Sequence record: OZ035800.1
Reading direction: 5' to 3' (one strand)
Length of the DNA stretch: 64,000 bases
Source of the DNA: Felixounavirus LF82P5
The position numbers and the translations under genes were made by a program. Under the pieces are notes generated by a model. The model worked only from the letters and a program-made list of their open reading frames with translations. It ran no database searches and had not been told where the DNA came from. The first letter of the stretch is position 1; each line of letters starts with the position of its first letter. This document shows positions 1 to 63,183 of this stretch, in pieces.

Positions 1-29
1 CTGAATAATTCTATTTGCGGAGGCGCTTA

Positions 30-1631
30 ATGGACTTAAATGCTGTTAAGCAGAAGCGAGTGGAAGATGTTAGGAAAGTCCTAGCTGGAGAGTTGGGGCT
101 TTCTGATGAAGTAAAAGAAATTATTAAATCATTCGGTAAAGACCCCTCTAAATTCCTTCCAACTCAAATTCTGACTTTATTAAGATACACACCAGACCAA
201 GTTCGCCTCATCTTTAAATTGATGACTGATAAGAACTATGTAGCCCCTCAACCGGGTTCTCAAGAGGTCTTTTTAAATACTAATGCTGACTTGGTTCTCT
301 ATGGTGGTGCTGCTGGTGCTGGTAAGACTGCTGCATTGTTAATGGACTCTTTAAGATTTATTGAAGACCCTAACTATAATGCTGTGTATTTCCGTCGAAA
401 CACAACACAGTTACAGGGTGGTTTATGGCCTGCTGCAAAGAAACTATTTGGTAAGTTTGGTGGGATTCCTCACGAGCAGAAAATGACTATCACATTCCCT
501 TCTGGGGCGACTATCAAGTTTACCTACCTAGAACTTGAAAAGCACGCTGAAGGTCATCAGGGTATTGAATACTCAGCTATTTACTTTGACGAAGGTACAC
601 ACTTCTCTGCTTCACAGATTTCATACCTACAAACCCGTCTACGTTCTGGTGCTGAAGGCGATTCATACATGAAGATTTCCATGAACCCAGACAGAGACCA
701 TTTTATTTATGATTGGGTAGAACCATTCTTAGATGAAGAAGGTTATCCAGACCCTGAAAAGTGTGGTCGTATTCGTTGGTATGTAATGAACGATGGTGTG
801 ATGGTTTCTGATTGGGAGAGAGACAAGATTCTTGAAATGTTCCCTCTTGAGATTCCTCAAACATACACCTTTATCTCTGGTACGATTGATGATAACCCAA
901 TCCTTGACTTCTTAGAACCAAAGTATCGCGGTAAGTTGGAAAACAACACTCCTGTAAACGTTGCAAGACTTCGTTTCGGTAACTGGAAGGCTCGTGCAGA
1001 AGGTTCAAACTATTGGCAAAGACAATGGTGTGAGATTGTTGATTCACTCCCAGAAGATGTATTCGATGTTAGAGCATGGGACTTAGCAGCAACTTTACCA
1101 TCTGAGGTTAACCCTAATCCAGACTGGACAGCAGGTGTTAAGATGGGTAAATCTAAAAAAGACGGTTGCTATTATATCATTGATGTAGTAAGATTTAGAG
1201 ATAGACCCTCTGGAGTCGAAACACAAATTAATTTGACTGCTGAAAGTGACGGTAAGCGAACTGGTATTTTTATCCCTCAAGACCCAGGCGCTGCTGGTAA
1301 ATCCTACGCAACATCCCTCATCAGGAAACTTGCCGAGAAAGGCTATCGTGCAAGAGCCAAACCAACAAATAAAGATAAAGTTACCCGATTTGCGGGATTT
1401 TCTGCTGCTTCTGAAGCTGGACTTGTAAAAGTCTTGAGAGGTAGTTGGAATGAAGCTTACTTTCAAGAACTTGAAGGTTTTTGTGGTGATGGTAAAACTA
1501 AAGATGACCAAGTGGATGCTACCAGTGATGCTTTCAACAGTCTTAACGAAGTTAAATTATTCAAGCCACCATCAATGGGTGCTCACACAGACTTAGTGAG
1601 AGGAAACCCATATGAGGGGCTTAGACGTTGA
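30..1631 (+). CDS. Terminase large subunit
   Basis: Walker A GGAAGAGKT near N-terminus; ATG at 30 preceded by GGAGG (track start 15 is TTG); sits just upstream of portal. Confidence 0.8.
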   Translation: MDLNAVKQKRVEDVRKVLAGELGLSDEVKEIIKSFGKDPSKFLPTQILTLLRYTPDQVRLIFKLMTDKNYVAPQPGSQEVFLNTNADLVLYGGAAGAGKTAALLMDSLRFIEDPNYNAVYFRRNTTQLQGGLWPAAKKLFGKFGGIPHEQKMTITFPSGATIKFTYLELEKHAEGHQGIEYSAIYFDEGTHFSASQISYLQTRLRSGAEGDSYMKISMNPDRDHFIYDWVEPFLDEEGYPDPEKCGRIRWYVMNDGVMVSDWERDKILEMFPLEIPQTYTFISGTIDDNPILDFLEPKYRGKLENNTPVNVARLRFGNWKARAEGSNYWQRQWCEIVDSLPEDVFDVRAWDLAATLPSEVNPNPDWTAGVKMGKSKKDGCYYIIDVVRFRDRPSGVETQINLTAESDGKRTGIFIPQDPGAAGKSYATSLIRKLAEKGYRARAKPTNKDKVTRFAGFSAASEAGLVKVLRGSWNEAYFQELEGFCGDGKTKDDQVDATSDAFNSLNEVKLFKPPSMGAHTDLVRGNPYEGLRR

Positions 1632-1648
1632 TAGCTAGGTGAAGAAGA

Positions 1649-3115
1649 ATGGCAGATATTACAGAAACACAAGAAAGCTTACCACCATTTAGAATGGGTG
1701 AAGTAGGTTCTTTGGGTCTGAAGGTTAAGAATGGAAGAATCTATGAAGAACCTCGTCAGGCACTAAGGTTCCCTGAAAGTATTAAAACTTTCCAATTAAT
1801 GATGCGTGACCCTGCTGTAGCAGCATCTGTAAATATTATTAAGATGTTTGTCAGAAAAGTCAACTGGAGATTCGTACCTCCAAAGGGAAAAGAGCAAGAC
1901 CCTAAAATGCTTGAAAGAGCAGACTTCTTTAATTCTTTAATGGATGACATGGAGCATGATTGGGCAGATTTTATTAATTCTGTAATGTCATTCTGCACTT
2001 ATGGGTTTTGTGTTAACGAGAAAGTTTATAAGAAGCGACAGGGTAAAAAAGGAAAGTACCAGTCAAAATTTGATGATGGTCTAATTGGGTGGGCTAAATT
2101 ACCAATCAGAAATCAATCAACGCTTGATAAGTGGTATTTTGACGAAGACTTTAGAAAAGTTACTGGTGTAAGACAGAATCTGAGAAATGTTTCACATATT
2201 GCTGGAGCAATTAATCTTGGAGAAAGACCACTAACAAGAAAACTCCCACGAGCTAAGTTCATGCTGTTTAAGTATGACGATGAGTATGGTAACCCAGAAG
2301 GTCGTTCACCATTACTTAATGCTTATGTACCGTGGAAGTATAAAGTACAGATTGAAGAGTATGAAGCTGTTGGTGTTTCAAGAGACTTAGTAGGTATGCC
2401 AAAGATTGGTTTACCACCAGATTATCTGGATGAAAATGCAGAACCTGAAAAGAAAGCTTTCGTACAATACTGCAAAACTGTTGTTAATGATATGATTGCT
2501 AACGACAGAGCAGGTTTAATCTGGCCTAGATATATCGACCCAGATACTAAAGAGGATATTTTCGAGTTCTCATTAGTTTCTAGACAGGGTGCTAAAGCAT
2601 ACGATACAGGTTCTATTATTGACAGATATTCCAAGCAGATTATGATGGCATTTATGTCAGATGTTCTTGCTATGGGTCAGTCAAAATACGGTTCATTCTC
2701 TCTTGCAGATTCTAAGACAAGCTTACTAGCAATGTCGGTAGATATTCTACTGAAGCAAATTAAGAACGTAATTAACCGTGATTTAGTTGCACAGACTTAT
2801 GCTCTTAATATGTGGGACGATGAAGAACATGTACAAATCACATATGATGATATCGAAACTCCAGACCTTGAAGCAATTGGTTCTTATATCCAGAAGACTG
2901 TTGCAGTAGGTGCTTTGGAAGTTGACAAAGAGCTATCTAACAAGCTTAGAGAGCATATTGGTCTTCCTCCTGCTGATGAGTCTCAACCAGTATCTGAAAA
3001 GCTTTCTCCAAATAGTCAAAGCCGTTCAGGAGATGGTTATAAGACCGCTGGAGAAGGTACTGCAAAGACACCTTCAGCGAAAGACCCAAGCACAGCAAAT
3101 AAGGCAAATAAATAA
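1649..3115 (+). CDS. Portal protein (by synteny)
   Basis: 488 aa ORF immediately after terminase, before protease and capsid genes. Confidence 0.55.
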   Translation: MADITETQESLPPFRMGEVGSLGLKVKNGRIYEEPRQALRFPESIKTFQLMMRDPAVAASVNIIKMFVRKVNWRFVPPKGKEQDPKMLERADFFNSLMDDMEHDWADFINSVMSFCTYGFCVNEKVYKKRQGKKGKYQSKFDDGLIGWAKLPIRNQSTLDKWYFDEDFRKVTGVRQNLRNVSHIAGAINLGERPLTRKLPRAKFMLFKYDDEYGNPEGRSPLLNAYVPWKYKVQIEEYEAVGVSRDLVGMPKIGLPPDYLDENAEPEKKAFVQYCKTVVNDMIANDRAGLIWPRYIDPDTKEDIFEFSLVSRQGAKAYDTGSIIDRYSKQIMMAFMSDVLAMGQSKYGSFSLADSKTSLLAMSVDILLKQIKNVINRDLVAQTYALNMWDDEEHVQITYDDIETPDLEAIGSYIQKTVAVGALEVDKELSNKLREHIGLPPADESQPVSEKLSPNSQSRSGDGYKTAGEGTAKTPSAKDPSTANKANK

Positions 3116-3615
3116 TGGCTGAAGTTATCTCTATTTCAAATGCTACACGAGTGCATTCGTATAGAGGTGTTCTTATTATCACTGACAAATTATCTGTAGA
3201 GGCTGGCTCAAGGGTCAGCCTTTCAGGTTATGTAAGTGATGGTGGAACCTCTGACGTTTTCACTATTTGCAGGTTACTTGATGCACCAATGAGTGGAAAA
3301 CCGTTTATTTTAGGAAATTGTAGTGAAATTGTTAAAATTCCATTTGACAGTTCATGCCTTTTGGGTGTAAAGTTATATAACTGCGAGAATAAACGTATCA
3401 ATGTTAATAGCATTGAAGCCGCTTTCATTACCCTCGACACTGCATTTCAATCTCCAATGACAGTTAATAAAGAAACAAACAGACTTGAATACATTTTTTC
3501 ACAAAATGATTACAAAGTACTTGTCAAAGGCAAAGTATATGATATGATTGTAAATGTGGTAGATGAATCTGGTAACCATTCAACAGTCCTTAAACAAAAA
3601 GTAAGGTTTAATTAA
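3115..3615 (+). CDS. Hypothetical head-associated protein
   Basis: 166 aa ORF, start overlaps portal stop (ATGA-type coupling). Confidence 0.4.
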   Translation: MAEVISISNATRVHSYRGVLIITDKLSVEAGSRVSLSGYVSDGGTSDVFTICRLLDAPMSGKPFILGNCSEIVKIPFDSSCLLGVKLYNCENKRINVNSIEAAFITLDTAFQSPMTVNKETNRLEYIFSQNDYKVLVKGKVYDMIVNVVDESGNHSTVLKQKVRFN

Positions 3616-3947
3616 TGGGAACATTAACTATTGATGGTAAGAATAAAATCCTCGCCACGCTAACCCCAACGACTATTATTTTACACAATGTAGACCCAAC
3701 GGCAGACCCTACAGCAAATAAGGTTACTCAGCCAGTGGCTATTTATTTTTCTGAACCGGATAATGGCTTAATTGCCTCAGAAGATACAGTTAATATTACT
3801 GTTCCAGCTTCTGCAACGGTCTCACACTATAGCTTGTGGGATGCTAACGATAAATGCGTGGCAACTGGTGCTCTTAGCAAACCTCAATTCTTCGCTGAAG
3901 AAGGTATCTATGTTATCTCTTCAGTCTCTGTAGATTTAAACAAATAG
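3615..3947 (+). CDS. Hypothetical head-associated protein
   Basis: 110 aa ORF coupled to upstream gene. Confidence 0.4.
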   Translation: MGTLTIDGKNKILATLTPTTIILHNVDPTADPTANKVTQPVAIYFSEPDNGLIASEDTVNITVPASATVSHYSLWDANDKCVATGALSKPQFFAEEGIYVISSVSVDLNK

Positions 3948-3958
3948 GGTGAGTAAAA

Positions 3959-5305
3959 ATGAGTTCGAATATCTTCAGACTTGCTGATAGATTATTCAAC
4001 CAACCTTTACTAGCCACTGAATCATTAGCTCACTCAGCAGCAACTTATGTGAATAACAGATTGCTGGGTGATGTCCAAGCAGCAGTAAACTTTGATAAAC
4101 CCAAAGGTGAAGCAAGAAGTCTTTTAAAAGTGAAAGATGACATTGCTATTATCCCTATTATGGGTGGTTTAACCCATCGTATGACATTCATTGATGCAAT
4201 GTGTACAGGTGGATTAAGCTCTTATGAAGGTTTGCGTAGAGGCTTTGACGAAGCTTTAGCAGATGAGTCAATCAAGACTATTGTTCTGCACATCGATTCT
4301 GGTGGTGGTGAAGCTTCAGGTTGCTTTGAATTAGCACGTCACATTATGGCTTCAAGAGGCCAAAAGAAAATTATTGCTTATGTAGATGAGTTCGCTTGTT
4401 CCGCTGCATACGCTCTTGCATCTTCTGCTGAAGAAATTATTGCATCACCAGATGCAGATGTTGGTTCTATTGGTGTAATCATGGTTCATCAGGAATTAAC
4501 TAAGGCATTTGAAAAGAATGGCGTAACAATTAACGTCATCAAAGCTGGTGAGTTTAAAGGTATGGGTTCACCATTCCAAGCACTTTCAGAAGAAAGCAAA
4601 GAAAGACTTCAAAAGAGAATTAATGATACCTACGCAACCTTTACAGGTTTTGTAGCTGAATCTCGTAATCTCTCTGAAGAAGCTGTAAAGAATACTGAGG
4701 CGAATGTTTATTCTGCTCAGGAAGCTCTTGAACTTGGTTTAATTAACTCAATCATGTCTCAAGATGATTTCTTAAATTACTTACAAGGTTCTGAAGAGGC
4801 TCCTGTAAGTTTAAACGTTAACAATTCAGGTGAAGAAATGACTGAACAAGAAAAGCAAGAACTAGAAGCTTTGCGTCTTCAGGTTGCTCAAATGAAAGCT
4901 AAAGAACAGGAAGCTGCTTTGTCAGATTTGACTAATAAGATTTCTGCTTCTGCTGAAGCTTTTGGGTTTGATGCAAAAGAAGCTGCAACGACTATTTTAG
5001 GTGCTGGTCTTGATAACCCTCTGAGCGTTCTGTTTATGAATGCTATGGAAGGTGCTAACCAGAAACTTAATGAAACTATCGCGTCCCATGCTTCTGCAAT
5101 GGAAGAAAAAGAATCAGAAATTACCAAGCTGAAAGAAACTGCTGGTGCTGTTCTTGAACATTCTAATGCTATGGAAGAAATGGGTAATGACGGCGAAGCT
5201 GATTTGGTTGAAGAAGAAAAAGAACCAGCTAAGAATGCTTCCGAAGACACCGCTGAACAACGCAAACTGGCTCTCCAGAATGCTCTAAAATCTCTTATCA
5301 AATAA
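3959..5305 (+). CDS. Prohead protease (S49/SppA-like) fused to acidic coiled-coil scaffold-like C-terminal domain
   Basis: N-terminal region with IIAYVDEFACSAAYALASSAEEI resembling S49 peptidase core; C-terminal 170 aa E/A/K-rich; position between portal and capsid as in lambda C/Nu3. Confidence 0.6.
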   Translation: MSSNIFRLADRLFNQPLLATESLAHSAATYVNNRLLGDVQAAVNFDKPKGEARSLLKVKDDIAIIPIMGGLTHRMTFIDAMCTGGLSSYEGLRRGFDEALADESIKTIVLHIDSGGGEASGCFELARHIMASRGQKKIIAYVDEFACSAAYALASSAEEIIASPDADVGSIGVIMVHQELTKAFEKNGVTINVIKAGEFKGMGSPFQALSEESKERLQKRINDTYATFTGFVAESRNLSEEAVKNTEANVYSAQEALELGLINSIMSQDDFLNYLQGSEEAPVSLNVNNSGEEMTEQEKQELEALRLQVAQMKAKEQEAALSDLTNKISASAEAFGFDAKEAATTILGAGLDNPLSVLFMNAMEGANQKLNETIASHASAMEEKESEITKLKETAGAVLEHSNAMEEMGNDGEADLVEEEKEPAKNASEDTAEQRKLALQNALKSLIK

Positions 5306-5316
5306 GGAACACAATA

Positions 5317-5694
5317 ATGGCATATGAAGGTTTTACTCACTTAGGTAAAAGAGAACCTCTGAATGATATCATTCTTTGGGAACAGGTTACCCCAACAGGT
5401 CACTCTCGCAAAGAGTACACTCCAGTTGCTTCAACAGAATACCGTGTAGGTGAAGTCCTGAAAGCAGATGGTACTAAAGTTGCAGCAGGGGAAGAAGCTC
5501 AGGCTGATTCTGTATGTATCGTTAACTTTTACGCAGACCTACAACTGTCTTACCACGGTCAGTTGAAAGTTGTTGGCATTTACCGTGACGCAGAACTAAA
5601 AGACCTGCTTACTCTTGAATCAGGTGTTGATGCTGATGCAGTCAAGACAGCTCTGGCTGCTAAAGGTATTGATTTCGTACCAACTGGCCTGTAA
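5317..5694 (+). CDS. Head decoration-like protein (by position)
   Basis: 125 aa ORF between protease-scaffold and major capsid gene. Confidence 0.35.
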   Translation: MAYEGFTHLGKREPLNDIILWEQVTPTGHSRKEYTPVASTEYRVGEVLKADGTKVAAGEEAQADSVCIVNFYADLQLSYHGQLKVVGIYRDAELKDLLTLESGVDADAVKTALAAKGIDFVPTGL

Positions 5695-5727
5695 TAACAA
5701 TAATAAGACATTCTGGAGAATTTTACA

Positions 5728-6831
5728 ATGTTGACTAATTCTGAAAAAAGCAGATTTTTCCTTGCTGACCTGACTGGTGAAGTCCAGTCTATCCCAAATA
5801 CTTATGGGTATATTTCCAACTTAGGTCTATTCCGTTCAGCACCAATCACCCAAACTACTTTCCTTATGGACTTGACTGATTGGGATGTTAGCTTGCTTGA
5901 TGCGGTAGACCGTGATAGCCGTAAAGCAGAGACTAGCGCACCTGAGCGTGTTCGTCAAATCAGCTTCCCAATGATGTACTTCAAAGAAGTTGAAAGCATT
6001 ACTCCTGATGAGATTCAGGGTGTACGTCAGCCAGGCACTGCAAACGAACTGACTACTGAAGCTGTAGTACGTGCCAAGAAGCTGATGAAGATTCGTACCA
6101 AGTTCGATATTACTCGTGAGTTCCTGTTTATGCAAGCTCTGAAGGGTAAAGTTGTTGATGCTCGTGGTACTCTGTACGCTGACCTGTACAAGCAGTTCGA
6201 CGTTGAGAAGAAGACTATTTACTTTGACCTTGACAACCCTAATGCTGACATCGATGCTTCTATTGAAGAACTGCGTATGCACATGGAAGATGAAGCTAAG
6301 ACTGGCACTGTAATCAACGGTGAAGAAATTCACGTAGTTGTTGACCGTGTATTCTTCAGCAAACTGACTAAGCACCCTAAGATTCGTGATGCTTATCTTG
6401 CACAGCAGACTCCGCTGGCTTGGCAACAGATTACTGGTTCTCTGAGAACTGGTGGTGCCGACGGCGTTCAAGCTCACATGAACACTTTCTACTACGGTGG
6501 CGTTAAGTTTGTCCAGTATAACGGTAAGTTTAAAGACAAGCGTGGTAAGGTTCATACTCTGGTTAGCATTGATGGTGCTGGTGCAGACGTTGGTGTAGGG
6601 CACGCTTTCCCTAACGTATCTATGTTGGGTGAAGCTAACAACATCTTTGAAGTTGCATACGGCCCATGTCCTAAGATGGGTTATGCAAATACACTTGGTC
6701 AGGAACTATACGTATTCGAATACGAAAAAGACCGTGACGAAGGTATTGACTTCGAAGCTCACTCTTACATGCTGCCATACTGTACTCGTCCTCAGTTGCT
6801 GGTAGATGTTCGTGCTGACGCTCAAGGCTAA
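5728..6831 (+). CDS. Major capsid protein (by synteny)
   Basis: 367 aa ORF with GGAG RBS, after protease/decoration genes. Confidence 0.6.
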   Translation: MLTNSEKSRFFLADLTGEVQSIPNTYGYISNLGLFRSAPITQTTFLMDLTDWDVSLLDAVDRDSRKAETSAPERVRQISFPMMYFKEVESITPDEIQGVRQPGTANELTTEAVVRAKKLMKIRTKFDITREFLFMQALKGKVVDARGTLYADLYKQFDVEKKTIYFDLDNPNADIDASIEELRMHMEDEAKTGTVINGEEIHVVVDRVFFSKLTKHPKIRDAYLAQQTPLAWQQITGSLRTGGADGVQAHMNTFYYGGVKFVQYNGKFKDKRGKVHTLVSIDGAGADVGVGHAFPNVSMLGEANNIFEVAYGPCPKMGYANTLGQELYVFEYEKDRDEGIDFEAHSYMLPYCTRPQLLVDVRADAQG

Positions 6832-6852
6832 TATTCTTAAGGAGGGTTATGA

Positions 6853-7302
6853 ATGTGCTATACAGGCGACCCAGCCAATAACCCTCTTGATAGAGTAAGA
6901 ATCCTCTGCACAGACACCAATAATGATGAAATTCTTATTGAACAGTCTGTGCTAGAGTGGTTCTATCTAGAATCTGGAAAGGATGAAAAGAAAGCAGCCA
7001 TCAAAGCTCTTAAATATTTACTCTTTCAAGTAGCCAAGATGGGAGATGAGAAGGTTGGTGGTGTTTATTTACGTAACTCTTCCAGATTCAAATCTCTGAA
7101 AGCTGTTTATGACGACCTTGTTAAAAGCTCTGTTTCAGGACTACCCTATGCAGGTGGTATTAATCAGTGTGATATTGACATGCGTCGTCAGAATCCTTGC
7201 TCTGTCAAGAAATACACAGAATATGGTGATGCTGCCAGATACGAAGGCAGAGATTACTGCAACCGTGTTAATGGCGTATTTATTATCGAGCGAGATGAAT
7301 AA
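6853..7302 (+). CDS. Hypothetical head-tail connector/completion protein
   Basis: 149 aa ORF in head-tail joining position. Confidence 0.4.
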   Translation: MCYTGDPANNPLDRVRILCTDTNNDEILIEQSVLEWFYLESGKDEKKAAIKALKYLLFQVAKMGDEKVGGVYLRNSSRFKSLKAVYDDLVKSSVSGLPYAGGINQCDIDMRRQNPCSVKKYTEYGDAARYEGRDYCNRVNGVFIIERDE

Positions 7303-7784
7303 TGGTTAAAAGGGTTATTCACCCCGCGAGAGCAAAATTAGTCGGGGCTATGAAGAACTTGCAAACGGCTAATGCTCAAGTTGGGTATTTTCAAGAACAA
7401 GGTCAACATAGCTCTGGTTTTTCTTATCCTGCTTTAATGTATTTACAAGAAGTTATTGGGGTTCCTTCAGCTTCTGGTAAAGTATATCGTAGGTTGTTTG
7501 AAATCACTATGATGCTAAACAAACAGACCTTGTTAGAGCAGACTAAGAAGAATCTATATAAGCAACTTAGCAGTCTCAATACAGACCCTTCAAATACCTT
7601 AGAAGCATTTGCAAAGAATGCTCAAAAGGCAATTAAAAGGGGTTTTGGTAATTCTGCTATCCTCCCTCCTAACGCACCTTCCACAGTCAAGAAAAAAGGC
7701 TTTAACGCACCTCTTGTTGAGACAGGTGACTTAAGAGATAACCTTGCTTATAAAATTTCTACTAAGAAGGGTATTAAGAAATGA
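7302..7784 (+). CDS. Hypothetical head-tail joining protein
   Basis: 160 aa ORF, ATGA overlap with upstream gene. Confidence 0.4.
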   Translation: MVKRVIHPARAKLVGAMKNLQTANAQVGYFQEQGQHSSGFSYPALMYLQEVIGVPSASGKVYRRLFEITMMLNKQTLLEQTKKNLYKQLSSLNTDPSNTLEAFAKNAQKAIKRGFGNSAILPPNAPSTVKKKGFNAPLVETGDLRDNLAYKISTKKGIKK

Positions 7785-8182
7785 GACTCTTAAACAGACA
7801 CAGCTTTGTAGTAAAGCGTAAAGTCTCTGAAGACGGTTATTATAACGATGATGGTGATTGGGTAGCTTCACAAGATATTGTAGAGGTTAACTGTAAAGGT
7901 AATATCCAGCCATACATCAAAGGTTCTGTAAAGAATGGTACACAGATTGCTTTACCGGAAGGTATTAGGCTTACCGATACGAGAATCCTGTATACCACAT
8001 ATAAACTTAGAACTTCAGATGATGTAGAGTGGAATGAGTCTGATATTGTTATGATTGATGGTCATGAGTATGAAGTATTTATGACTATGGATTGGTCACA
8101 GCAATTAGCCCATACGTCCCATTATGAATATATCATTATTAGAAGGGATAAAATGAATGCAGTTAGAAACAGCAGAACTTGA
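7781..8182 (+). CDS. Hypothetical head-tail joining protein
   Basis: 133 aa ORF, coupled. Confidence 0.4.
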   Translation: MRLLNRHSFVVKRKVSEDGYYNDDGDWVASQDIVEVNCKGNIQPYIKGSVKNGTQIALPEGIRLTDTRILYTTYKLRTSDDVEWNESDIVMIDGHEYEVFMTMDWSQQLAHTSHYEYIIIRRDKMNAVRNSRT

Positions 8183-8756
8183 AAAAGGTCTAGTTAGAAC
8201 CTTAGTGGATGTTATTGGTCACAGACTAGCTCGTGATAAAAATAATAGACCGAATGTAATTAGAGCTTACCCTTCTGATAACTCAAATGACAAAGGTTTA
8301 AAACCTGACCAGCCATTTATTACCGTATATTGTCAAGATGCTGCAACACCTTATGGTTGGGTTCTTGATAAGTTTGTTGAGGATGATGTAGTTTGCTACA
8401 GAATTGCTTTTCAGATTCCAGTATTAATTACGGTGAATGGTAAAGGTGCTCACAGTATTATGCTTGAGCTTAAACAACGATTAGAGATGAGTTCAGTCAG
8501 GGATTTAATTCTTGAAGAGACAGGAGCTACAGTACTAGACACTGGAGCCATCCCAAATGACTACACTTATCTCAATACAGATTTCGAAAATTCTGCGCCT
8601 CTTGTTGTAACTCTTGTAAAAAATTCAGTCCTGAAAGATGAACGTGGAAGTATTATTGAGCGTGTCATTGTTGATGGTGAGTTGGTTTATGAAGAAGGAC
8701 AAGAGCCACCAGAATATACTATCCATCTAGATGTAGACTCCAAAGGGGTAAAATAA
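8157..8756 (+). CDS. Hypothetical tail completion protein
   Basis: 199 aa ORF directly upstream of sheath gene. Confidence 0.4.
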   Translation: MQLETAELEKGLVRTLVDVIGHRLARDKNNRPNVIRAYPSDNSNDKGLKPDQPFITVYCQDAATPYGWVLDKFVEDDVVCYRIAFQIPVLITVNGKGAHSIMLELKQRLEMSSVRDLILEETGATVLDTGAIPNDYTYLNTDFENSAPLVVTLVKNSVLKDERGSIIERVIVDGELVYEEGQEPPEYTIHLDVDSKGVK

Positions 8757-23001: not shown

Positions 23002-23196
23002 ATGCCTACAATCCTAGCAATTCTTCTAAAAAATCTAGGTAGCTTCTTCTGGAAACTCATTTTATCCCTTCTAAGTGAATACATGATTGAGAAAGTGTTC
23101 TTTAAGCTTGCAAGATACCTTGCGAGTAAAACAGACACACCTATTGATGATGAGTTCGTAGATAACTTAGAAAAAGCTTTTAAGGGGGAGAAATAA
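23002..23196 (+). CDS. Small hydrophobic protein (possible lysis/membrane protein)
   Basis: 64 aa, hydrophobic N-terminal segment ILAILLKNLGSFFWKLILSLL; GAGGTG RBS; downstream of TTGACT-17-TAATAT promoter. Confidence 0.4.
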   Translation: MPTILAILLKNLGSFFWKLILSLLSEYMIEKVFFKLARYLASKTDTPIDDEFVDNLEKAFKGEK

Positions 23197-23568
23197 ATGA
23201 AGTGGCTAGAGGAAGCTTTTAAAAATAATATTGGTGCAATTGTAGTTGGTATTTTTAGTGTTATTGGGATGTATACCACTATGCAAGTTTCAAGTGGTAA
23301 GCAAGAAGTGTCTGTCACAACAAAGTTACAGCAGCTAGATAATTATTCCAAAAGTAACTATTCAGCTATTCGTGATTTACAGTCTGACATGAGACTGATT
23401 CAGCTAGGGATGGAGAACCAGAAAGTTCAGTTAGAGAATGTTAAGGGTGAAAACGCAAAACTTACCAAAACTCTTGATAAATTCTCTGACAGTGTGAATA
23501 ATCTGGCTCAATCAGTATCAGCCCTCCAAGCTATTACTGAAAAGAACACAAAGAATACTGAAAAATAA
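23197..23568 (+). CDS. Single-pass membrane protein with coiled-coil domain (holin/antiholin or spanin-like candidate)
   Basis: 123 aa; one TM helix NIGAIVVGIFSVIGMYTTM then Q/L/N-rich coiled coil; last gene before bidirectional terminator. Confidence 0.4.
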   Translation: MKWLEEAFKNNIGAIVVGIFSVIGMYTTMQVSSGKQEVSVTTKLQQLDNYSKSNYSAIRDLQSDMRLIQLGMENQKVQLENVKGENAKLTKTLDKFSDSVNNLAQSVSALQAITEKNTKNTEK

Positions 23569-56672: not shown

Positions 56673-59039
56673 ATGCGCATGGTAAACGACCACGCAGAAG
56701 TGATTAAGAGTTCAACTTCTTTAGAGACGTCTCAAGCACAGATTACAATGACACCTGAAATGTTCAGCCTTTTGAGTTCTGGTGTATATACCTTTAAAGA
56801 AAGGGCAGTGATTCGTGAACTGTCATGTAACGCAGTAGATGCTCAGAAAGAGGCTGGAAAAGAGAACATCCCGTTCCATGTGCATTTGCCTACTCGTTTT
56901 GAGCCTTACTTTGAAGTTCGTGATTTTGGAACTGGATTAACTCATGACAAAGTTATGAGCTTGTACCTAAACTACGGGGCTTCTACAAAGAATGACTCCA
57001 ATGACTACATTGGTGCAATGGGTATCGGCTCAAAGTCACCATTTGCAATTGCTCAGTCATTCACAGTATCTAGCTATGTTGATGGTGTTGTTAATAAGTA
57101 CTCTGTTTACCTTGAGAATGGTATCCCTCAAGTAACTAAGCTGACAACTAACCCAACAAAAGAACCTAATGGTTTAGCTGTACGTGTGGCAGTTGCTGAC
57201 CACCGTATCTCAAAGTTCTTTGAAGAGGCTGGTCACGTATACTCATACTTTGCTGTAAAACCAGAGAGTAATGTGGAGTATAATGATATATTAGCAGATA
57301 TGGATGTGATTGCTCGTGAAGAAGGTGTCTATGATGCCATGACTCATAAGCATAGCTGGCGTTCAAGCAGCAATAGAACAGAGTTTAACGTGGTTATGGG
57401 TAATATTGCCTACCCAGTTAATATGGAGGCATTACTTGGTGATGATTTCTTCAAAGTATTACCAGAATTTTTCCGCAGGAGCATAGACCTTGTAAACATC
57501 TACATGCCTATTGGTTCAGTTGCTATTGCAGCTTCTCGTGAAGCATTGCAGATGAATGACACGACAAAAAATGTTATCATCGAGGCTACTAAAAAGATAA
57601 CTGAAGCAATTACAAAGGATGTTATCAAGAAAGTTAATAGTCAACCTACACTCATGGATGCTGCACAGGCTTATGCTGAGTTACGCTTAAACTCACGAGA
57701 GATGTTTAATGTTGTGTGTCCAAAGCTAGAGTGGGGAGGTGTTAAGCTTGATTCTCTGGAAGAAGAATTACTAAACATTCGTCGTGGAATTATCTACGCA
57801 GAAGACGGCTCAGTCATTTATGAACGTGACGGCAAAGGCAATATTAAGGTTGATAGGAACGGGAACAATATTCCTAAAGTAGATTATCTTTATGACCCAG
57901 TTGCTTATGTCAAATTCAACTCTTTAGAGAGTAAGATTCGTGCAACATCGCTTTCCTACACTCAAGAGGCAAGCATGTTCAATATCTTTGGCGCAATGCG
58001 TAAAAGCCAAATTGAACAGTTTTTGTTTGTTATAAATGACCGTCGCAATAAAAACGGTACTGAGAAGACTGTAGGACGCAATCAAATCTTGCGTGGTGCA
58101 TGTCGAGACTATGCCAGTGAGTCTAGTCTGTTTCACAGATACAATGGTATTGTATTTGTATTCTCGACTGAAAAAGAGCTAGATGACTTAGTCAATCTAC
58201 ACAAACTTGATAAAAGCTTGTTAAAGATTGTGAAGATGTCTGAGAAGGAACACCATTATCAGCGTAAAGAAGCTGTAAGAGGTGTTGTAAAACTCTGGAA
58301 AGCTGTTCCAGCAGAAGGTGTAGCTTCCTATAAAGAGGTTTCAGAGGACTTTGATACAATTGAAGAGCCTCAGCTTTACATTAAGGCAGTTGGTGATACA
58401 GTTGATGGTAGATGTTTTTGCTCATCTCCAGAAGATGTAGCTAAGTCAGTTGCTAATGTTACAGGTAAGACAGTCTATGTTTTCCGAAAAGCAAATTGGA
58501 AAAAGATACCAGAAGATTGGATTGAAGTAGATGAGAAACTCTTGAACGACAGCTTAACTGATGTTCACTGGATTAACCATAACAGATATATGACGCGTAT
58601 CTATATGAATGGTGTCCTTGACCTTACAAGCAGTTGGATTATTGCCAGAAACTTTACGTTTAATAACAGGAAGATTTCTCGCGGGTATTGTTATTCAAGG
58701 GATACTATTAAGACAATCTTCTTAGAAGGGAATGAAGATGCTGTTGAGGCAATGTTTGGTAAGATTCAGTATGTGGCTGCACCGTTTGCATACACTTACA
58801 CTATCAGTGTTCTTCAGGATTTGAAGTCATGCCTTGATAATGACACAAAACTGTACAAAAAGATTAAGAAAGCAGGTGACCGCATGGTTATCAAGCTGAC
58901 AAACTATCTTTCAAAAAGAAAACAAGAAAACTTCTTGCTTTCACACTTAGATTGGAATAAAGTATCACCTATCGAAGTGAGTAAGTTTTTAGGCTTTGAT
59001 GTGAAGTGTGTTCCAGAAGGGACTACAATTTACGATTAA
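56673..59039 (+). CDS. rIIA: rIIA-like protein with N-terminal GHKL (histidine kinase-like) ATPase fold
   Basis: N box ELSCNAVDA, G1 box VRDFGTGL, G2 box GAMGIGSKS; 788 aa; followed by rIIB-like gene. Confidence 0.75.
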   Translation: MRMVNDHAEVIKSSTSLETSQAQITMTPEMFSLLSSGVYTFKERAVIRELSCNAVDAQKEAGKENIPFHVHLPTRFEPYFEVRDFGTGLTHDKVMSLYLNYGASTKNDSNDYIGAMGIGSKSPFAIAQSFTVSSYVDGVVNKYSVYLENGIPQVTKLTTNPTKEPNGLAVRVAVADHRISKFFEEAGHVYSYFAVKPESNVEYNDILADMDVIAREEGVYDAMTHKHSWRSSSNRTEFNVVMGNIAYPVNMEALLGDDFFKVLPEFFRRSIDLVNIYMPIGSVAIAASREALQMNDTTKNVIIEATKKITEAITKDVIKKVNSQPTLMDAAQAYAELRLNSREMFNVVCPKLEWGGVKLDSLEEELLNIRRGIIYAEDGSVIYERDGKGNIKVDRNGNNIPKVDYLYDPVAYVKFNSLESKIRATSLSYTQEASMFNIFGAMRKSQIEQFLFVINDRRNKNGTEKTVGRNQILRGACRDYASESSLFHRYNGIVFVFSTEKELDDLVNLHKLDKSLLKIVKMSEKEHHYQRKEAVRGVVKLWKAVPAEGVASYKEVSEDFDTIEEPQLYIKAVGDTVDGRCFCSSPEDVAKSVANVTGKTVYVFRKANWKKIPEDWIEVDEKLLNDSLTDVHWINHNRYMTRIYMNGVLDLTSSWIIARNFTFNNRKISRGYCYSRDTIKTIFLEGNEDAVEAMFGKIQYVAAPFAYTYTISVLQDLKSCLDNDTKLYKKIKKAGDRMVIKLTNYLSKRKQENFLLSHLDWNKVSPIEVSKFLGFDVKCVPEGTTIYD

Positions 59040-59044
59040 AGTGT

Positions 59045-59074
59045 TTGACAAGGGGCTTCAAAGCCCCTTAGAAT
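59045..59074 (+). promoter_or_regulatory. Sigma70-like promoter TTGACA-18-TAGAAT with hairpin in spacer, upstream of rIIB
   Basis: -35 TTGACA 59045-59050; spacer is perfect hairpin AGGGGCT-TCAA-AGCCCCT; -10 TAGAAT 59069-59074. Confidence 0.5.
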
Positions 59075-59118
59075 AGCCTCACAAATTGATTGATTAACTA
59101 ACAAGAGAGAGTAATAAG

Positions 59119-60228
59119 ATGACTACTAAAACTAAAGCACAGATTGACGCAGAAATTTACAAACTGGTTAAAGAAGGTAAGCTGACCAAAACAGCTATTG
59201 CACAGAAATTTAACACTTCAACCCGTTCAGTTGGTCGTGCTGTAGAGCGTCATGAAGCAACCTTAAAAGGGAAGAAGAAGGTGACTTCTACACCAGCTAC
59301 GAAGACTTTGAAGCAAGTTGCTAAGACTTTTAAAAAGAAAGCTGGCAAACCAGTTGAAAAGGTCGTTAAAGACGCTGTACAGAAAGCTCCAGTAAATAAA
59401 CTGCACGAAGCTATGCAGAAAGATGACAAGATTGAGTACATGATTACTGGTGATTCTGTAATTATGACTTATGGTTCAGAATCTGAAATTGTTGAGTCTA
59501 CTCATCCGAACTATCAAGAGATTGTAGTTCATGTTGTGAAAGGTGAGTTCAAGAAAGCATTTGAACTGATGAACATTCGTAAGTCTATCGAAAACTTCAC
59601 TCAGGGTGCTATCACAATCAAAGGCGACAAGCTATTCTACGGTGCTGTTGAGATGCGTTCTACTCTGGTTGACCGTATTCTTCACATGATGAAAACTGGC
59701 GATAAAGGTTTTGAACGACTTGTAATGTTCTTCGAAAAACTGATGGAAAACCCATCTAAAGATTCTGTAGAACAACTTTGGGGATTTGTATCTCACCTTG
59801 ATGTTGAAATTGATGAAGAAGGCTACATCATTGGTTGGAAGAAAGTCTCTACTCGTGAAGGCAAGCTGGTTGACTCTCACACCTACAAAGTGCCTAATGA
59901 TTTGGGTAACATTGTAGAAATGCCACGTTGGATGGTTGATAATAACCGTAACGTAACTTGCTCTCAAGGTCTTCATGTTGGTGCTTGGGATTATGTTCGT
60001 TGCTTCTCAGGTGATACAATCCTGAAGGTTCGCGTACATCCACGAGATGTTGTATCTGTTCCAACTGATTACAACGATATGAAGATGCGTTCCTCTCGTT
60101 ATGAAGTTGCAGCAATCGTTGATAATCAACGTAAAGTGCTGGAAGCATGGGACGGTAAGACTGAAGCTTTGCATGTCATCGTTGGCACTGCTGGTGAACT
60201 CATCTCTCAACGTAAACGTGAAATCTAA
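59119..60228 (+). CDS. rIIB: rIIB-like protein
   Basis: Segments LVDRIL, ENPSKDSV, CSQGLHVGAW, KVRVHPRDVVSVPTDYNDMKMR match T4 rIIB as recalled; downstream of rIIA. Confidence 0.65.
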   Translation: MTTKTKAQIDAEIYKLVKEGKLTKTAIAQKFNTSTRSVGRAVERHEATLKGKKKVTSTPATKTLKQVAKTFKKKAGKPVEKVVKDAVQKAPVNKLHEAMQKDDKIEYMITGDSVIMTYGSESEIVESTHPNYQEIVVHVVKGEFKKAFELMNIRKSIENFTQGAITIKGDKLFYGAVEMRSTLVDRILHMMKTGDKGFERLVMFFEKLMENPSKDSVEQLWGFVSHLDVEIDEEGYIIGWKKVSTREGKLVDSHTYKVPNDLGNIVEMPRWMVDNNRNVTCSQGLHVGAWDYVRCFSGDTILKVRVHPRDVVSVPTDYNDMKMRSSRYEVAAIVDNQRKVLEAWDGKTEALHVIVGTAGELISQRKREI

Positions 60229-60244
60229 TAAGTAATTTCTTAAA

Positions 60245-60267
60245 AGGCTGCTTCGGCGGCCTTTTTT
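60245..60267 (+). terminator. Rho-independent terminator after rIIB
   Basis: Stem AGGCTGC/GCGGCCT (one wobble), TTCG loop, TTTTTT. Confidence 0.7.
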
Positions 60268-60269
60268 AT

Positions 60270-60297
60270 TTGTATTTTGTGCAGAGTGCTGTATAAT
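60270..60297 (+). promoter_or_regulatory. Candidate promoter for lytic transglycosylase gene
   Basis: -10 TATAAT 60292-60297; weak -35 TTGTAT 60270-60275 (16 nt spacer). Confidence 0.4.
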
Positions 60298-60328
60298 TGT
60301 TGTCACGATAAACTAAACAGGAGAACCA

Positions 60329-60877
60329 ATGAAGAAATTGATTCTAGGTTTGTGCTTAATGTTTACAGCACACTTATCTTATGCAGTTGACTGCCCAGAG
60401 CTATCAATTAGCCAAAAAGTGAACATGTTAAAAGCTTACCAGTATGGTGAGAATAACATGGGTAAAGGTTGGGGTATCACTCTAGCAGCTATAGCCTTAC
60501 AAGAGTCAGAGTTAGGTCTGAAGGTAGAAAATAAAAAGACCCATGACTATGGTATCTTCCAGAATCACTTGAAGACTGTTGTAAAGCGTAACAAAATTAG
60601 TCCTAATGTTGCTAAAAAGAAACTCTTAAAAGACTTTGACTATGCTGCGAAGGAAACTCACAAAGAGCTTGAGTTTTGGACAAAGGTGCATGGTCAGCCA
60701 AAGTCAAAGAAGACTTTACAAAAAGTTTTAGCATCATATAATGCTGGGTATTCGTACAGAATCCCTAAAGCTAAGAAATATTCTCAAGATGTCTATAACA
60801 ACATGAAAGTTATTGCTCAATGTGAATTTGCAACAAACATTTCTAAGGTAAACCATGAAAAAATTAAAAAAGTCTGA
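60329..60877 (+). CDS. Secreted lytic transglycosylase (SLT domain) - candidate endolysin
   Basis: Signal peptide MKKLILGLCLMFTAHLSYA; SLT motifs ALQESELG (catalytic Glu-Ser), YGIFQ, ASYNAGYSY. Confidence 0.6.
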   Translation: MKKLILGLCLMFTAHLSYAVDCPELSISQKVNMLKAYQYGENNMGKGWGITLAAIALQESELGLKVENKKTHDYGIFQNHLKTVVKRNKISPNVAKKKLLKDFDYAAKETHKELEFWTKVHGQPKSKKTLQKVLASYNAGYSYRIPKAKKYSQDVYNNMKVIAQCEFATNISKVNHEKIKKV

Positions 60878-61550
60878 TGAAGTACTGTGTCATGCTTACG
60901 ACTTACATCCTCATGAGTTAGGTCTTGATTCCTGTGTATGGACTCCAGAACAGTGTAGGGATTTTGAAGACACTGCAAGAGAAGTTGTATGTTCACTCGA
61001 AGAGTTCCACACATCAGAACCAATTGTGAATGTTGTAGATAAAGAGACTGGACAAACTATAGGTGTAAGTCGTGATAGCTTAGTCATAGTCAATAAAGAC
61101 CTTGTAGAAAAAGGGAATCTCATCTTAGCAGATATTGATGGTGTTCTTACAAATTTTAATCACGAAGATTGTTCAACGGAATTGACTGACGGTTCATTCT
61201 CGCAGTACACTAATCTTCTTGACTCTGTAAGAGCAAAACCAACGTATGTTTTCAATATCATTGATGCAATTGCTAATCATGCTGCTGTTGGACTCTTGAC
61301 AGCGAGAGGTGAATCTCAGAGAATACCTACTGAGATGTTTTTAAGGCATAACACAGAGCATGACTACATGCTTTTTATGCGTGGTTTTGGGACTAACTCT
61401 ATAAGCGCAGAAAGTTTGAAAGTGAGGATGATTCAGTCTTGCATTCTGCCTTACTTTAATATAGTATGTTTTATAGAAGACACAGAGAAGAATGTGCAGA
61501 AGGTGAACAGAATCCTTCCACACATTAAAACCATGTTAGTTAAACATTGA
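60855..61550 (+). CDS. HAD-superfamily hydrolase-like protein (possible nucleotidase/phosphatase)
   Basis: Motif I LILADIDGVLTNF (DxDG), later GLLTARG and FIEDTEKN; overlaps SLT gene end by 23 nt. Confidence 0.4.
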   Translation: MKKLKKSDEVLCHAYDLHPHELGLDSCVWTPEQCRDFEDTAREVVCSLEEFHTSEPIVNVVDKETGQTIGVSRDSLVIVNKDLVEKGNLILADIDGVLTNFNHEDCSTELTDGSFSQYTNLLDSVRAKPTYVFNIIDAIANHAAVGLLTARGESQRIPTEMFLRHNTEHDYMLFMRGFGTNSISAESLKVRMIQSCILPYFNIVCFIEDTEKNVQKVNRILPHIKTMLVKH

Positions 61551-61560
61551 GAGAAAACTT

Positions 61561-62025
61561 ATGAACAATATCATTACGGTAGCACTGGACGATACGGTAA
61601 ACAAATCTGCAATAGTTCGTAAAATGATTCAAGGTAACTTTGAAGGTAAAATTTTTCGTGCTGTTAATGTAAAAGCTGATGGCAGCATTCGTGAATATCG
61701 TGCATTATTGAATGTTAAAAAACACGTAAAAGGTGCTGGTTCAACTACTGCACACAAAGAAAACCTGATGACTATCTATGATATGGGCAAGGCTTCAGAG
61801 TTAGGTGCTGAAGGTATCGTTAAAGAAGGTGCTCCGTATCGCTCTTTCAATCTGGAAACTACTCTTATGCTTTCCTTTACAAGTGGTTCTAAAACAATCA
61901 CTTATCTCTTTACTGATGCTGCAACGGTATCTGCTATTAAGGATAGCACTGTCAAAGCTGGCGTAGTTGCTGCTGCAAAAGCTTCTTCGATGGCTGCGAA
62001 TATCCTTGCTAAAGTCCTCGGTTAA
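61561..62025 (+). CDS. Hypothetical protein
   Basis: 154 aa, Ala-rich C-terminus, followed by terminator. Confidence 0.4.
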   Translation: MNNIITVALDDTVNKSAIVRKMIQGNFEGKIFRAVNVKADGSIREYRALLNVKKHVKGAGSTTAHKENLMTIYDMGKASELGAEGIVKEGAPYRSFNLETTLMLSFTSGSKTITYLFTDAATVSAIKDSTVKAGVVAAAKASSMAANILAKVLG

Positions 62026-62036
62026 GGTTAAGATAC

Positions 62037-62058
62037 AGGCTCCTTCGGGAGCCTTTTT
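62037..62058 (+). terminator. Rho-independent terminator upstream of spanin genes
   Basis: Stem GGCTCC/GGAGCC, TTCG loop, TTTTT. Confidence 0.75.
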
Positions 62059-62077
62059 CATTTTAGGAGATTGTTAA

Positions 62078-62425
62078 ATGACATTTAAAGAGTTCTGTCA
62101 AGCTACTTTCATAATTGTTTTCTTAGTTGGTGCAGGTGTCTGGGGAGGATACTCTTACAGAGACTATCAAGTTGCTGAAACTGAGCTAAATAATGAGAAA
62201 CTAATAAGTGTTGCTAAAGATGCTTATCAGGAAGGTTTAGCCACACTCAGCACCAATTACAAAAATGATTTGAAAGATGTGCTTGCTAAGAATAAGCATA
62301 CAAAAGAGGTACTAACATATGAAAAAACTAAGCCAGAGTTTTATAATGTTTGTGTTACTGATAACTATGTCAGGGTGTTCAACGAACAAAGTGAGCAGTA
62401 CATTCAAAAACTCCCAAGTAAGTGA
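62078..62425 (+). CDS. i-spanin (inner-membrane spanin subunit) candidate
   Basis: N-terminal TM FCQATFIIVFLVGAGVWGG then charged helical periplasmic domain; o-spanin gene starts inside it in another frame. Confidence 0.55.
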   Translation: MTFKEFCQATFIIVFLVGAGVWGGYSYRDYQVAETELNNEKLISVAKDAYQEGLATLSTNYKNDLKDVLAKNKHTKEVLTYEKTKPEFYNVCVTDNYVRVFNEQSEQYIQKLPSK

Positions 62426-62588
62426 GGGTGATAAGTACACCCAAGAAGAATCACGGTATATCATCAAAGGCAACACAGGCAGCGATGTAGCAGCAGCCCT
62501 TGAGTTCTATCGTGACGGCTTTTACCAGTGCACAATCAAAGCTAACAACCTTATTGACATGATTTTATTAGGGAATAAGCAGCAATGA
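62319..62588 (+). CDS. o-spanin (outer-membrane lipoprotein spanin subunit) candidate
   Basis: Lipoprotein signal MKKLSQSFIMFVLLITMSGC with lipobox; GAGG RBS; overlaps i-spanin 3' end. Confidence 0.55.
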   Translation: MKKLSQSFIMFVLLITMSGCSTNKVSSTFKNSQVSEGDKYTQEESRYIIKGNTGSDVAAALEFYRDGFYQCTIKANNLIDMILLGNKQQ

Positions 62589-62854
62589 CAGAGAATCAAG
62601 ATACTTTTTACGTAGAAGGGTACTTACTGTTACCACGACCAAAAGAGACTTATATGCGAATTGATTTCTCACCAACCATTATGGATAATGTGATGTGCCA
62701 TATCTTTATGCAAGGTGTCACAGCACAGCTTAAACATGTTGGTAAAGAGTGCAAAATAAAGGTTGACACTCATCCAGAAATCAAAGAGAATCACTACACA
62801 TGGTTCTTACCAGATTCTAAAGAAATCTTAGCAGTTCTTAAAACGAGGAAGTAA
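62585..62854 (+). CDS. Hypothetical protein
   Basis: 89 aa ORF. Confidence 0.4.
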   Translation: MTENQDTFYVEGYLLLPRPKETYMRIDFSPTIMDNVMCHIFMQGVTAQLKHVGKECKIKVDTHPEIKENHYTWFLPDSKEILAVLKTRK

Positions 62855-62856
62855 CT

Positions 62857-63183
62857 ATGCAGATTAATGGAAGAGACTTTGTAGCCGTTTACTATGAGAA
62901 AGGTAAAGAAGTTGGCGTAGCACAAGTATCTTACGGCAATGGTAAGTGGCTATATGGAACAATCGCAGTAGTAGGAACAAGAAGTGATACAAAAACCTTT
63001 AAAGATTGTGTTGACCTTCTTGAAGAATCCATCCAGAATCATTGGTGTCTGATATGGATGACTGATAACGAAGTGATGGAGCGTTTCAAAAAGATTGATA
63101 TCAACATTGACAGTATTGAGCATGTTGATTTATATGAACTAACTGAGAAGGTAAACTATGAAAGTAATACTAGCCAGAGATAA
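62857..63183 (+). CDS. Hypothetical protein
   Basis: 108 aa ORF. Confidence 0.4.
   Translation: MQINGRDFVAVYYEKGKEVGVAQVSYGNGKWLYGTIAVVGTRSDTKTFKDCVDLLEESIQNHWCLIWMTDNEVMERFKKIDINIDSIEHVDLYELTEKVNYESNTSQR

Follow-up and report, generated by a model that had tools for sequence, protein, structure and literature searches.

The 64,000-nucleotide stretch of DNA analysed here (the window; Felixounavirus LF82P5, record OZ035800.1) carries near its end an open reading frame (ORF) whose product of 182 amino acids corresponds to gp3 of phage Felix O1 and to Vs.1 of phage T4. A first-pass annotation had read this protein as a lytic transglycosylase with a cleavable signal peptide, and as the likely endolysin of a phage with unusual lysis control. 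The first half of this reading stands and the second does not. That is, the protein is very probably an SLT-type lytic transglycosylase of the Vs.1 family with a signal peptide that is predicted to be a cleavable Sec substrate, and we are similarly confident that it is not the endolysin, because the phage has a separate GH24 endolysin, the literature names that enzyme as the lysin, and T4 vs.1 is dispensable. The explanation we favour, with a probability of about 0.62, is that of an exported accessory transglycosylase which would act before, and independently of, the holin.

Family, fold and predicted export signal of the protein

Profile and pairwise searches consistently place the protein among the Vs.1 proteins. 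It matches PHROG_600 with an E-value of 1e-57 (residues 1-170 against positions 1-176 of the 178-position profile), the family to which T4 vs.1 has been assigned (PMC11879866, supplement), and BLASTP against Vs.1 of phage RB51 gave 32% identity over nearly the full length (E 2e-16). Relatives were found by tblastn in 1,898 phage records, including genes named vs.1 in RB49 and RB51; all host genera in the top-ten tally of these relatives are Gram-negative. When 1.8 billion cluster representatives were searched with a profile, 1,265 clusters matched at E<=1e-3, and among the matches listed most were 160-200 amino acids long. An NCBIfam search gave no meaningful match. The Pfam SLT profile (PF01464) was recognized at E<0.01 in 67 of 74 relatives, the best at 3e-14, with RB51 Vs.1 scoring 25.1 bits, above the gathering threshold. 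Judged by its sequence, the protein represents a divergent subfamily of the family-1 GH23/SLT lytic transglycosylases rather than a non-member.

The SLT motifs on which the first-pass annotation had relied are indeed there. ALQ-ES-ELG, YGIFQ and ASYNAG, together with the downstream Y151, account for all four motifs known from family-1 lytic transglycosylases. Across 255 aligned relatives, E59, Y137, G140 and Y151 are invariant, while S60 is kept in 249, N138 in 241, G75 in 239 and S136 in 228; position 78 is occupied by Q in 131 relatives and by H in 103. The 'E-S catalytic pair' of the annotation can thus be recognized as the conserved E59-S60, but the wording is loose, since the glutamate alone is catalytic in this family.

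An AlphaFold2 model built from 74 sequences (pLDDT 88.3, pTM 0.82) was of low confidence only in the signal-peptide region, where a pLDDT of 55-57 is to be expected for such a segment, and in the last 15 residues. The model predicts an alpha-helical, lysozyme-like fold in which a small beta-sheet follows the catalytic glutamate, with E59 near the C-terminus of helix 48-60. Searched against solved structures, the family profile had as its top match EtgA, a type III secretion transglycosylase (E 2.4e-5). In this alignment, E59-S60 stand opposite the E-S of EtgA, and D73 of 'HDYGIFQ' opposite the Asp of 'YDIGIMQ'. Only the family profile reached EtgA; phmmer with the single protein returned no match among PDB sequences.

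For the N-terminus, signal-peptide cleavage was predicted by rule, from the n-region, the hydrophobic core, the -3/-1 residues and the lipobox. The n-region MKK is followed by a 13-residue h-region, LILGLCLMFTAHL (best 10-residue Kyte-Doolittle mean 2.58), and then by S-Y-A/V-D (slash, predicted cut), which satisfies the -3/-1 rule. This pattern is what the signal-peptide claim of the annotation called for, and it is shared widely, with signal-peptide-like N-termini in 227 of 249 full-length relatives. Among Felixounavirus and Mooglevirus orthologues, the A-x-A site is retained while its residues drift (AVA/SD, ATA/SD, AIA/DD).

Two other readings of the N-terminus were considered and rejected. 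One was a lipoprotein, for which the N-terminus has no lipobox. In two relatives, P0022 and P0025, a lipobox-like site (FSAC, LSAC) replaces the A-x-A site, and judging from these sequences the Vs.1 family may include lipoprotein variants. The other was a signal-arrest-release (SAR) domain, which had been put forward for checking in the annotation. SAR domains are 22-23 residues long and consist of 55-65% Gly/Ala/Ser/Thr; the uncharged N-terminal stretch of this protein has 17 residues with 29% Gly/Ala/Ser/Thr, and it ends in an A-x-A-type cleavage site. Neither length nor composition is SAR-like.

An indication of location also comes from a pair of cysteines. Cys22 and Cys165 are both present in 120 relatives and both absent from 112, with only 23 having one of the two (Fisher p about 6e-45, phylogeny ignored). 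This co-occurrence suggests a disulfide, which from the sequence pattern we consider likely, and hence an oxidizing, periplasmic location. Position 73 divides the family differently, with Asp in 85 and Ser in 150 of the 255 relatives. From this split, family subgroups might differ in hydrolase-like versus transglycosylase-like chemistry. The segment around D73, 'THDYGIFQN', is closely like 'TDYGILQIN', which we take to be the segment of hen egg-white lysozyme that contains Asp52.

Lysis genes of the phage and the proposed role of the transglycosylase

The gene that we regard as encoding the endolysin lies outside the window, in which tblastn found no copy of it; this location explains why the SLT protein was first taken for the lysin. 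In phage LinBro, a gene annotated 'endolysin' is found about 15 kb downstream of the transglycosylase orthologue, and an identical gene is present in LF82P5 (L004:15477-15941, minus strand), about 11 kb past the window end and about 13 kb downstream of the transglycosylase gene, where it adjoins a tail gene. Its 154-amino-acid product starts with MQLSRKGLEAIKFFEG, has no signal peptide and matches both Pfam Phage_lysozyme (PF00959) at E 6.6e-41 and, at E 4e-58, PHROG_7 'endolysin'. In the Felix O1 genome paper, this lysozyme, gp35, is given as the lysin, with no holin adjacent to it (PMC3185647). Genome announcements from the Center for Phage Technology describe dispersed lysis genes in Felix O1-like phages, those for a 'soluble lysozyme' endolysin, for both spanins (i and o) and, at most, for a putative holin (PMC4319497, PMC6486253). 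A literature search found no paper on a Felix O1 endolysin named 'LysO1' in the library covered. A tail-lysozyme function of the GH24 enzyme was considered as well and rejected, given that the enzyme is missing from the virion proteome list of Felix O1 and that all three papers call it lysin or endolysin.

No holin gene adjoins the transglycosylase gene. An i-/o-spanin pair, which the first-pass annotation had missed, is encoded 1.2 kb downstream of it, beyond a terminator; the o-spanin gene overlaps the i-spanin gene in another frame, and its start is uncertain, with different records placing it at 62319, 62367 or 62391. With an ordinary GH24 endolysin and spanins encoded at dispersed sites, there is little left of the proposed lysis control without a canonical holin. 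Two ORFs at 23002-23196 and 23197-23568 (both plus strand) close the tail-fibre operon, a late one, and directly precede the convergent thymidylate synthase gene; they encode proteins of 64 and 123 amino acids with N-terminal hydrophobic segments. They match PHROG_402 and PHROG_4038 (function unannotated) and sit at the position equivalent to that of gp79 in Felix O1, which was named among five candidates for the holin of that phage (PMC3185647). The two are plausible candidates for a holin and an antiholin.

Data from T4 further argue against an endolysin. In a HIDEN-SEQ screen, T4 vs.1 carried insertions at 46 of 52 sites and was classed as non-essential (bioRxiv 10.1101/2025.11.20.689424, supplement), and in CRISPRi-ART it was scored 'Semi-Fit' (0.81, p 0.099; PMC11879866, supplement). 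The authors of the latter study count it among the genes of 'purely unknown function' that may hold new biology, e.g., defence inhibition. A literature search on the timing and function of T4 vs.1 found no paper with a tested Vs.1 function. Lysis by T4 needs e, t and the spanin genes pseT.3/pseT.2. Vs.1 homologues co-exist with a separate endolysin, as is established for T4 and annotated for Felix O1-like phages.

The protein itself is already known. An identical protein (100%) is deposited for Salmonella phage FSL SP-010, and identity is at least 95% in over 200 records. A marginal SLT similarity of Vs.1 was remarked upon in 2006 (PMC1524935), and in 2010 the Felix O1 genome paper entered gp3 simply as a 'Vs.1 CHP' homologue (PMC3185647). 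In the latter study, the gp3 transcript was maximal at 25 min in a coarse reverse transcription-PCR series.

Most likely, then, the protein is an accessory periplasmic murein transglycosylase, and we infer the following course for its export, cleavage, disulfide formation, enzymatic activity, timing and physiological role. A host-type promoter directly after the rIIB terminator would drive a three-gene unit (60329-62025) that is bounded by terminators on both sides and has the transglycosylase gene first. The Sec pathway would export the precursor, and signal peptidase I would cut after Ala19 to remove residues 1-19. The mature, basic 18.7-kDa protein (pI 9.7) would fold in the periplasm, its N-terminus probably held to the last helix by a disulfide between Cys22 and Cys165. 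With Glu59 as the general acid, the enzyme would cleave the bonds between N-acetylmuramic acid (MurNAc) and N-acetylglucosamine in the sacculus non-hydrolytically, leaving 1,6-anhydro-MurNAc ends. Since it would not wait for a holin, it would have to act in a limited way, loosening or conditioning the murein so as to help later lysis, while being on its own neither necessary nor sufficient for it. Lysis proper would fall to the signal-less GH24 endolysin, a holin and the spanin pair. The murein-conditioning role is our own suggestion and a tentative one, to which we give somewhat less than an even chance.

Several observations weigh against this explanation. The Pfam SLT score of the protein, 19.2 bits (E 9e-4), is below the gathering threshold of 21.3, and Foldseek matches in the PDB were weak, with E-values of 8e-3 or worse. 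The 25-min bin in which the gp3 transcript peaks also holds that of the lysin gp35, such that an early accessory role is not separated from one at lysis time, and the same series scored the major capsid gene as 'early'. The distance of 1.2 kb to the spanin genes is compatible with some lysis-linked role. Finally, an active periplasmic transglycosylase would have to be kept from causing premature lysis.

Among the alternatives, the one that survives best is a periplasmic role apart from progeny release, such as interference with superinfecting or competing phages, countering an envelope defence, or muropeptide turnover and signalling. It would be consistent with the predicted export and with a host-promoter-type unit that adjoins rIIA/rIIB rather than late genes. 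T4-like relatives are found in the regB-vs-tk-rI gene block, which belongs to the early region of these phages. Further points in its favour are the presence of the family in about 1,900 phage records from several myovirus lineages and the listing of T4 vs.1 by the CRISPRi-ART authors (PMC11879866). However, no partner or immunity gene is evident, and with catalytic motifs conserved throughout, the likely target is the wall itself. On balance, we consider such a role unlikely, if worth keeping in view.

It is quite improbable that the protein is catalytically dead, or very weak, and binds murein with the SLT fold as a mere scaffold. The subthreshold Pfam score might be taken as a hint, and specialized transglycosylases such as EtgA are reported to be weak without a partner, but the catalytic glutamate and all family-1 motifs are invariant or nearly so in the 255 relatives, a pattern produced by selection on catalysis.

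We give even less credence to the original idea that the transglycosylase is the endolysin and takes a holin-free route under an unusual timing control, as in fOg44 Lys44 or the SAR endolysins. Both the signal-peptide features and the muralytic fold are real, Felix O1-like phages have no firmly identified holin, the spanin genes are near, and some records carry the label 'putative lysin'. Yet all this has to be set against a canonical GH24 endolysin in the same genome, which is the one the genome papers name, a non-essential T4 orthologue, family members that co-exist with a separate endolysin, an N-terminus unlike a SAR domain, and candidates for holin-like small membrane proteins at 23002-23568.

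A virion-associated, wall-degrading enzyme for DNA injection, like T7 gp16, PRD1 P7 or the phiKZ gp181 domain, is the least probable of all. Virion entry proteins do commonly contain SLT domains, and tape-measure and internal-core proteins share the fold, but a cleavable Sec signal peptide would remove the protein from the cytoplasm, the site of virion assembly. Whole-phage mass spectrometry of Felix O1 identified 16 structural proteins, and gp3 is not one of them (PMC3185647); the gene, too, lies outside the morphogenesis module.

Had the sole lysin of a Gram-negative phage turned out to be Sec-exported, this would have challenged the holin-endolysin-spanin scheme. The evidence does not make LF82P5 such a case, because the phage has ordinary lysis components, dispersed in its genome. 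What does remain is a more modest question, after 20 years of annotation: what function T4-like, Felix O1-like, Vi1-like and other large myoviruses assign to a conserved, presumably exported and, by its sequence, apparently active enzyme that gives only a weak fitness signal in recent genome-wide T4 screens.

Predicted transcription unit and gene neighbourhood

The features discussed here are collected in Table 1. The ATG of the transglycosylase ORF is the first start codon following an in-frame stop; no alternative lies in frame upstream, and the AGGAG backs this ATG. Against phage ekra, the ORF shows 9 synonymous versus 2 non-synonymous codon differences, indicating purifying selection.

Table 1. 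Features of the transglycosylase gene and its surroundings (window positions).
Feature	Position	Strand	Basis and details
rIIA	56673-59039		ORF list, PHROG profiles, annotations of relatives
rIIB	59119-60228		ORF list, PHROG profiles, annotations of relatives
Intrinsic terminator ending the rIIA/rIIB unit	60242-60265	+	Terminator scan; stem AAAAGGCTGC/GCGGCCTTTT, then T-run
Putative sigma-70-type promoter	60270-60297	+	Read from sequence; -35 TTGTAT 60270-60275, 16-nt spacer, -10 TATAAT 60292-60297
Shine-Dalgarno AGGAG	60319-60323	+	Read from sequence; 5 nt before ATG
Vs.1-family lytic transglycosylase, predicted to be exported (= Felix O1 gp3), coding sequence	60329-60877	+	182 aa; precursor 20.8 kDa, pI 9.7
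Predicted signal peptide, residues 1-19	60329-60385	+	Rule-based and family-wide conservation; signal peptidase I site SYA/VD
Mature GH23/SLT lysozyme-like domain	60386-60874	+	163 aa, 18.7 kDa
Cys22 codon	60392-60394		Likely disulfide with Cys165
Codons E59-S60, predicted catalytic Glu and conserved Ser (motif I)	60503-60508	+	255-relative alignment; EtgA alignment
D73 codon	60545-60547		
Cys165 codon	60821-60823		Likely disulfide with Cys22
PseT-like polynucleotide kinase/phosphatase-family gene	60855-61550	+	PHROG_3970, E 1e-134; HAD motif DIDGV, residues 93-97
Third gene of the unit	61561-62025	+	154 aa; PHROG profile, PHROG_2267 (function unannotated)
Intrinsic terminator at end of three-gene unit	62037-62054	+	Terminator scan; annotated in wV8 and ASO1A
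i-spanin	62078-62425	+	115 aa, N-terminal transmembrane segment; PHROG_1152 'Rz-like spanin', E 8e-42; annotated in ekra and Sf18
o-spanin	62319-62588	+	ORF list; lipobox-like ..ITMSGC; annotated in ekra and Sf18; weak PHROG_456 spanin match

The gene does have a -10 hexamer of its own, TATAAT, as the first-pass annotation had noted. It lies directly after the rIIB terminator and is paired with a weak -35 element that is under the -35 threshold of the promoter scan. The promoter is annotated in ASO1A, with 3 mismatches, and the terminator preceding it is annotated as such in both wV8 and ASO1A. In Mooglevirus Sf18, both TGTATAAT and the terminator are retained despite diverged flanks; a T.G pair of the terminator stem has become T-A there, and the -35 element reads TTGAAA, a better match.

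Directly downstream, overlapping the transglycosylase gene by 23 nt, is the gene of a PseT-type phosphatase, in line with the earlier observation that a haloacid dehalogenase (HAD)-like gene rather than a holin gene comes next. The order of a vs.1-like gene, a pseT-like phosphatase gene, a small ORF and the i-/o-spanin genes (60329-62588) recalls what we take to be the T4 arrangement pseT, pseT.1, pseT.2/pseT.3 (spanins). The block adjoining rIIA/rIIB resembles a mosaic of early-region genes of the T4 type.

Two stretches of the window, 1-3000 and 59000-63000, were compared with other phages. Each is 100% identical to Felixounavirus LF82P5 record OZ035761.1, and both show 97-98% identity with numerous further Felix O1-like phages whose hosts are Escherichia, Salmonella and Shigella. 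Window positions 1-3000 coincide with positions 1-3000 of OZ035761.1, yet position 59000 corresponds to position 57602 of that record, making the window about 1.4 kb longer in between. The extra DNA might reflect insertion of an intron or a homing-endonuclease gene, or the window may derive from an isolate other than that of the record.

Annotations of the Vs.1-like SLT genes vary considerably. Besides 'putative lysin' in some records, several of those from Ackermannviridae and T4-like phages read 'RegB site-specific RNA endonuclease' or 'endoribonuclease', labels that probably derive from regB, the gene next to vs.1 in T4. Salmonella phage Maynard provides an example (2902-3519), with a gene annotated 'holin' about 1 kb upstream. 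Such labels are unreliable and unsuited to choosing enzybiotic candidates. A bacterial Vs.1-like SLT gene was seen in Vibrio chagasii (CALSIQ010000044.1, 8001-8525), 1.3 kb from a gene for a 125-amino-acid Gly_radical protein and near a phage-type integrase gene (region 3096-8525). The Gly_radical protein recalls T4 vs.6; possibly, a pair of genes from the T4 'vs' block moves as one in a chromosomal island.

Comparison with known systems

Within the same phage, a parallel is offered by the counterpart of Felix O1 gp35, which is likewise predicted to cleave glycosidic bonds in murein. It differs in having a T4/lambda-lysozyme-type fold (GH24), no signal peptide and a gene next to a tail gene. 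In crossing the membrane via Sec without a holin, the transglycosylase would resemble the muralytic enzymes fOg44 Lys44, P1 Lyz and phage 21 R. Each of these, however, is the sole endolysin of its phage, whereas here there is a separate GH24 endolysin, and the T4 orthologue is dispensable. The SAR endolysins have a Gly/Ala-rich helix in place of the short, strongly hydrophobic, A-x-A-terminated signal peptide seen here.

Among the housekeeping family-1 enzymes (GH23), the catalytic domains of Slt70, MltC, MltE and MltF share 13-18% identity with the phage protein, which lacks accessory domains and a lipid anchor.

T4 Vs.1, encoded between regB and vs, is alike in family (PHROG_600), length (181 versus 182 residues), N-terminal signal peptide and SLT motifs, and orthologues are found in T4-like, Felix O1-like, Vi1-like and KVP40-like phages. 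In contrast with the protein studied here, T4-type Vs.1 is without the Cys22/Cys165 pair and carries 12 inserted residues ahead of its catalytic helix. The neighbourhood differs, too, with regB and vs in the T4-like phages versus rIIB, the pseT-like gene and the spanin genes here.

EtgA of enteropathogenic Escherichia coli is a small, Sec-exported, specialized transglycosylase, and the phage protein would function in a similar manner; the resemblance of the two in sequence and fold is real, at about 19% identity in the structural alignment. IpgF, IagB and VirB1 are further transglycosylases of secretion systems. Unlike enzymes of the EtgA/VirB1 type, the phage protein is encoded outside any secretion or pilus gene cluster, its neighbours being rIIA, rIIB, the PseT-like phosphatase and the spanins, and the Asp that D73 shares with EtgA is present in only 85 of the 255 Vs.1 relatives, compared with Ser in 150. 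One may speculate, as a doubtful extension, that Vs.1 proteins are a phage counterpart of these 'specialized' periplasmic transglycosylases, exported well before holin triggering and providing a holin-independent input into the wall that might govern when lysis occurs or how efficient the spanins are, or shield the infected cell from superinfection or envelope-linked defence. If so, this would explain both the retention of the gene in about 1,900 myoviruses of unrelated lineages and the mild cost of a vs.1 knock-down in T4.

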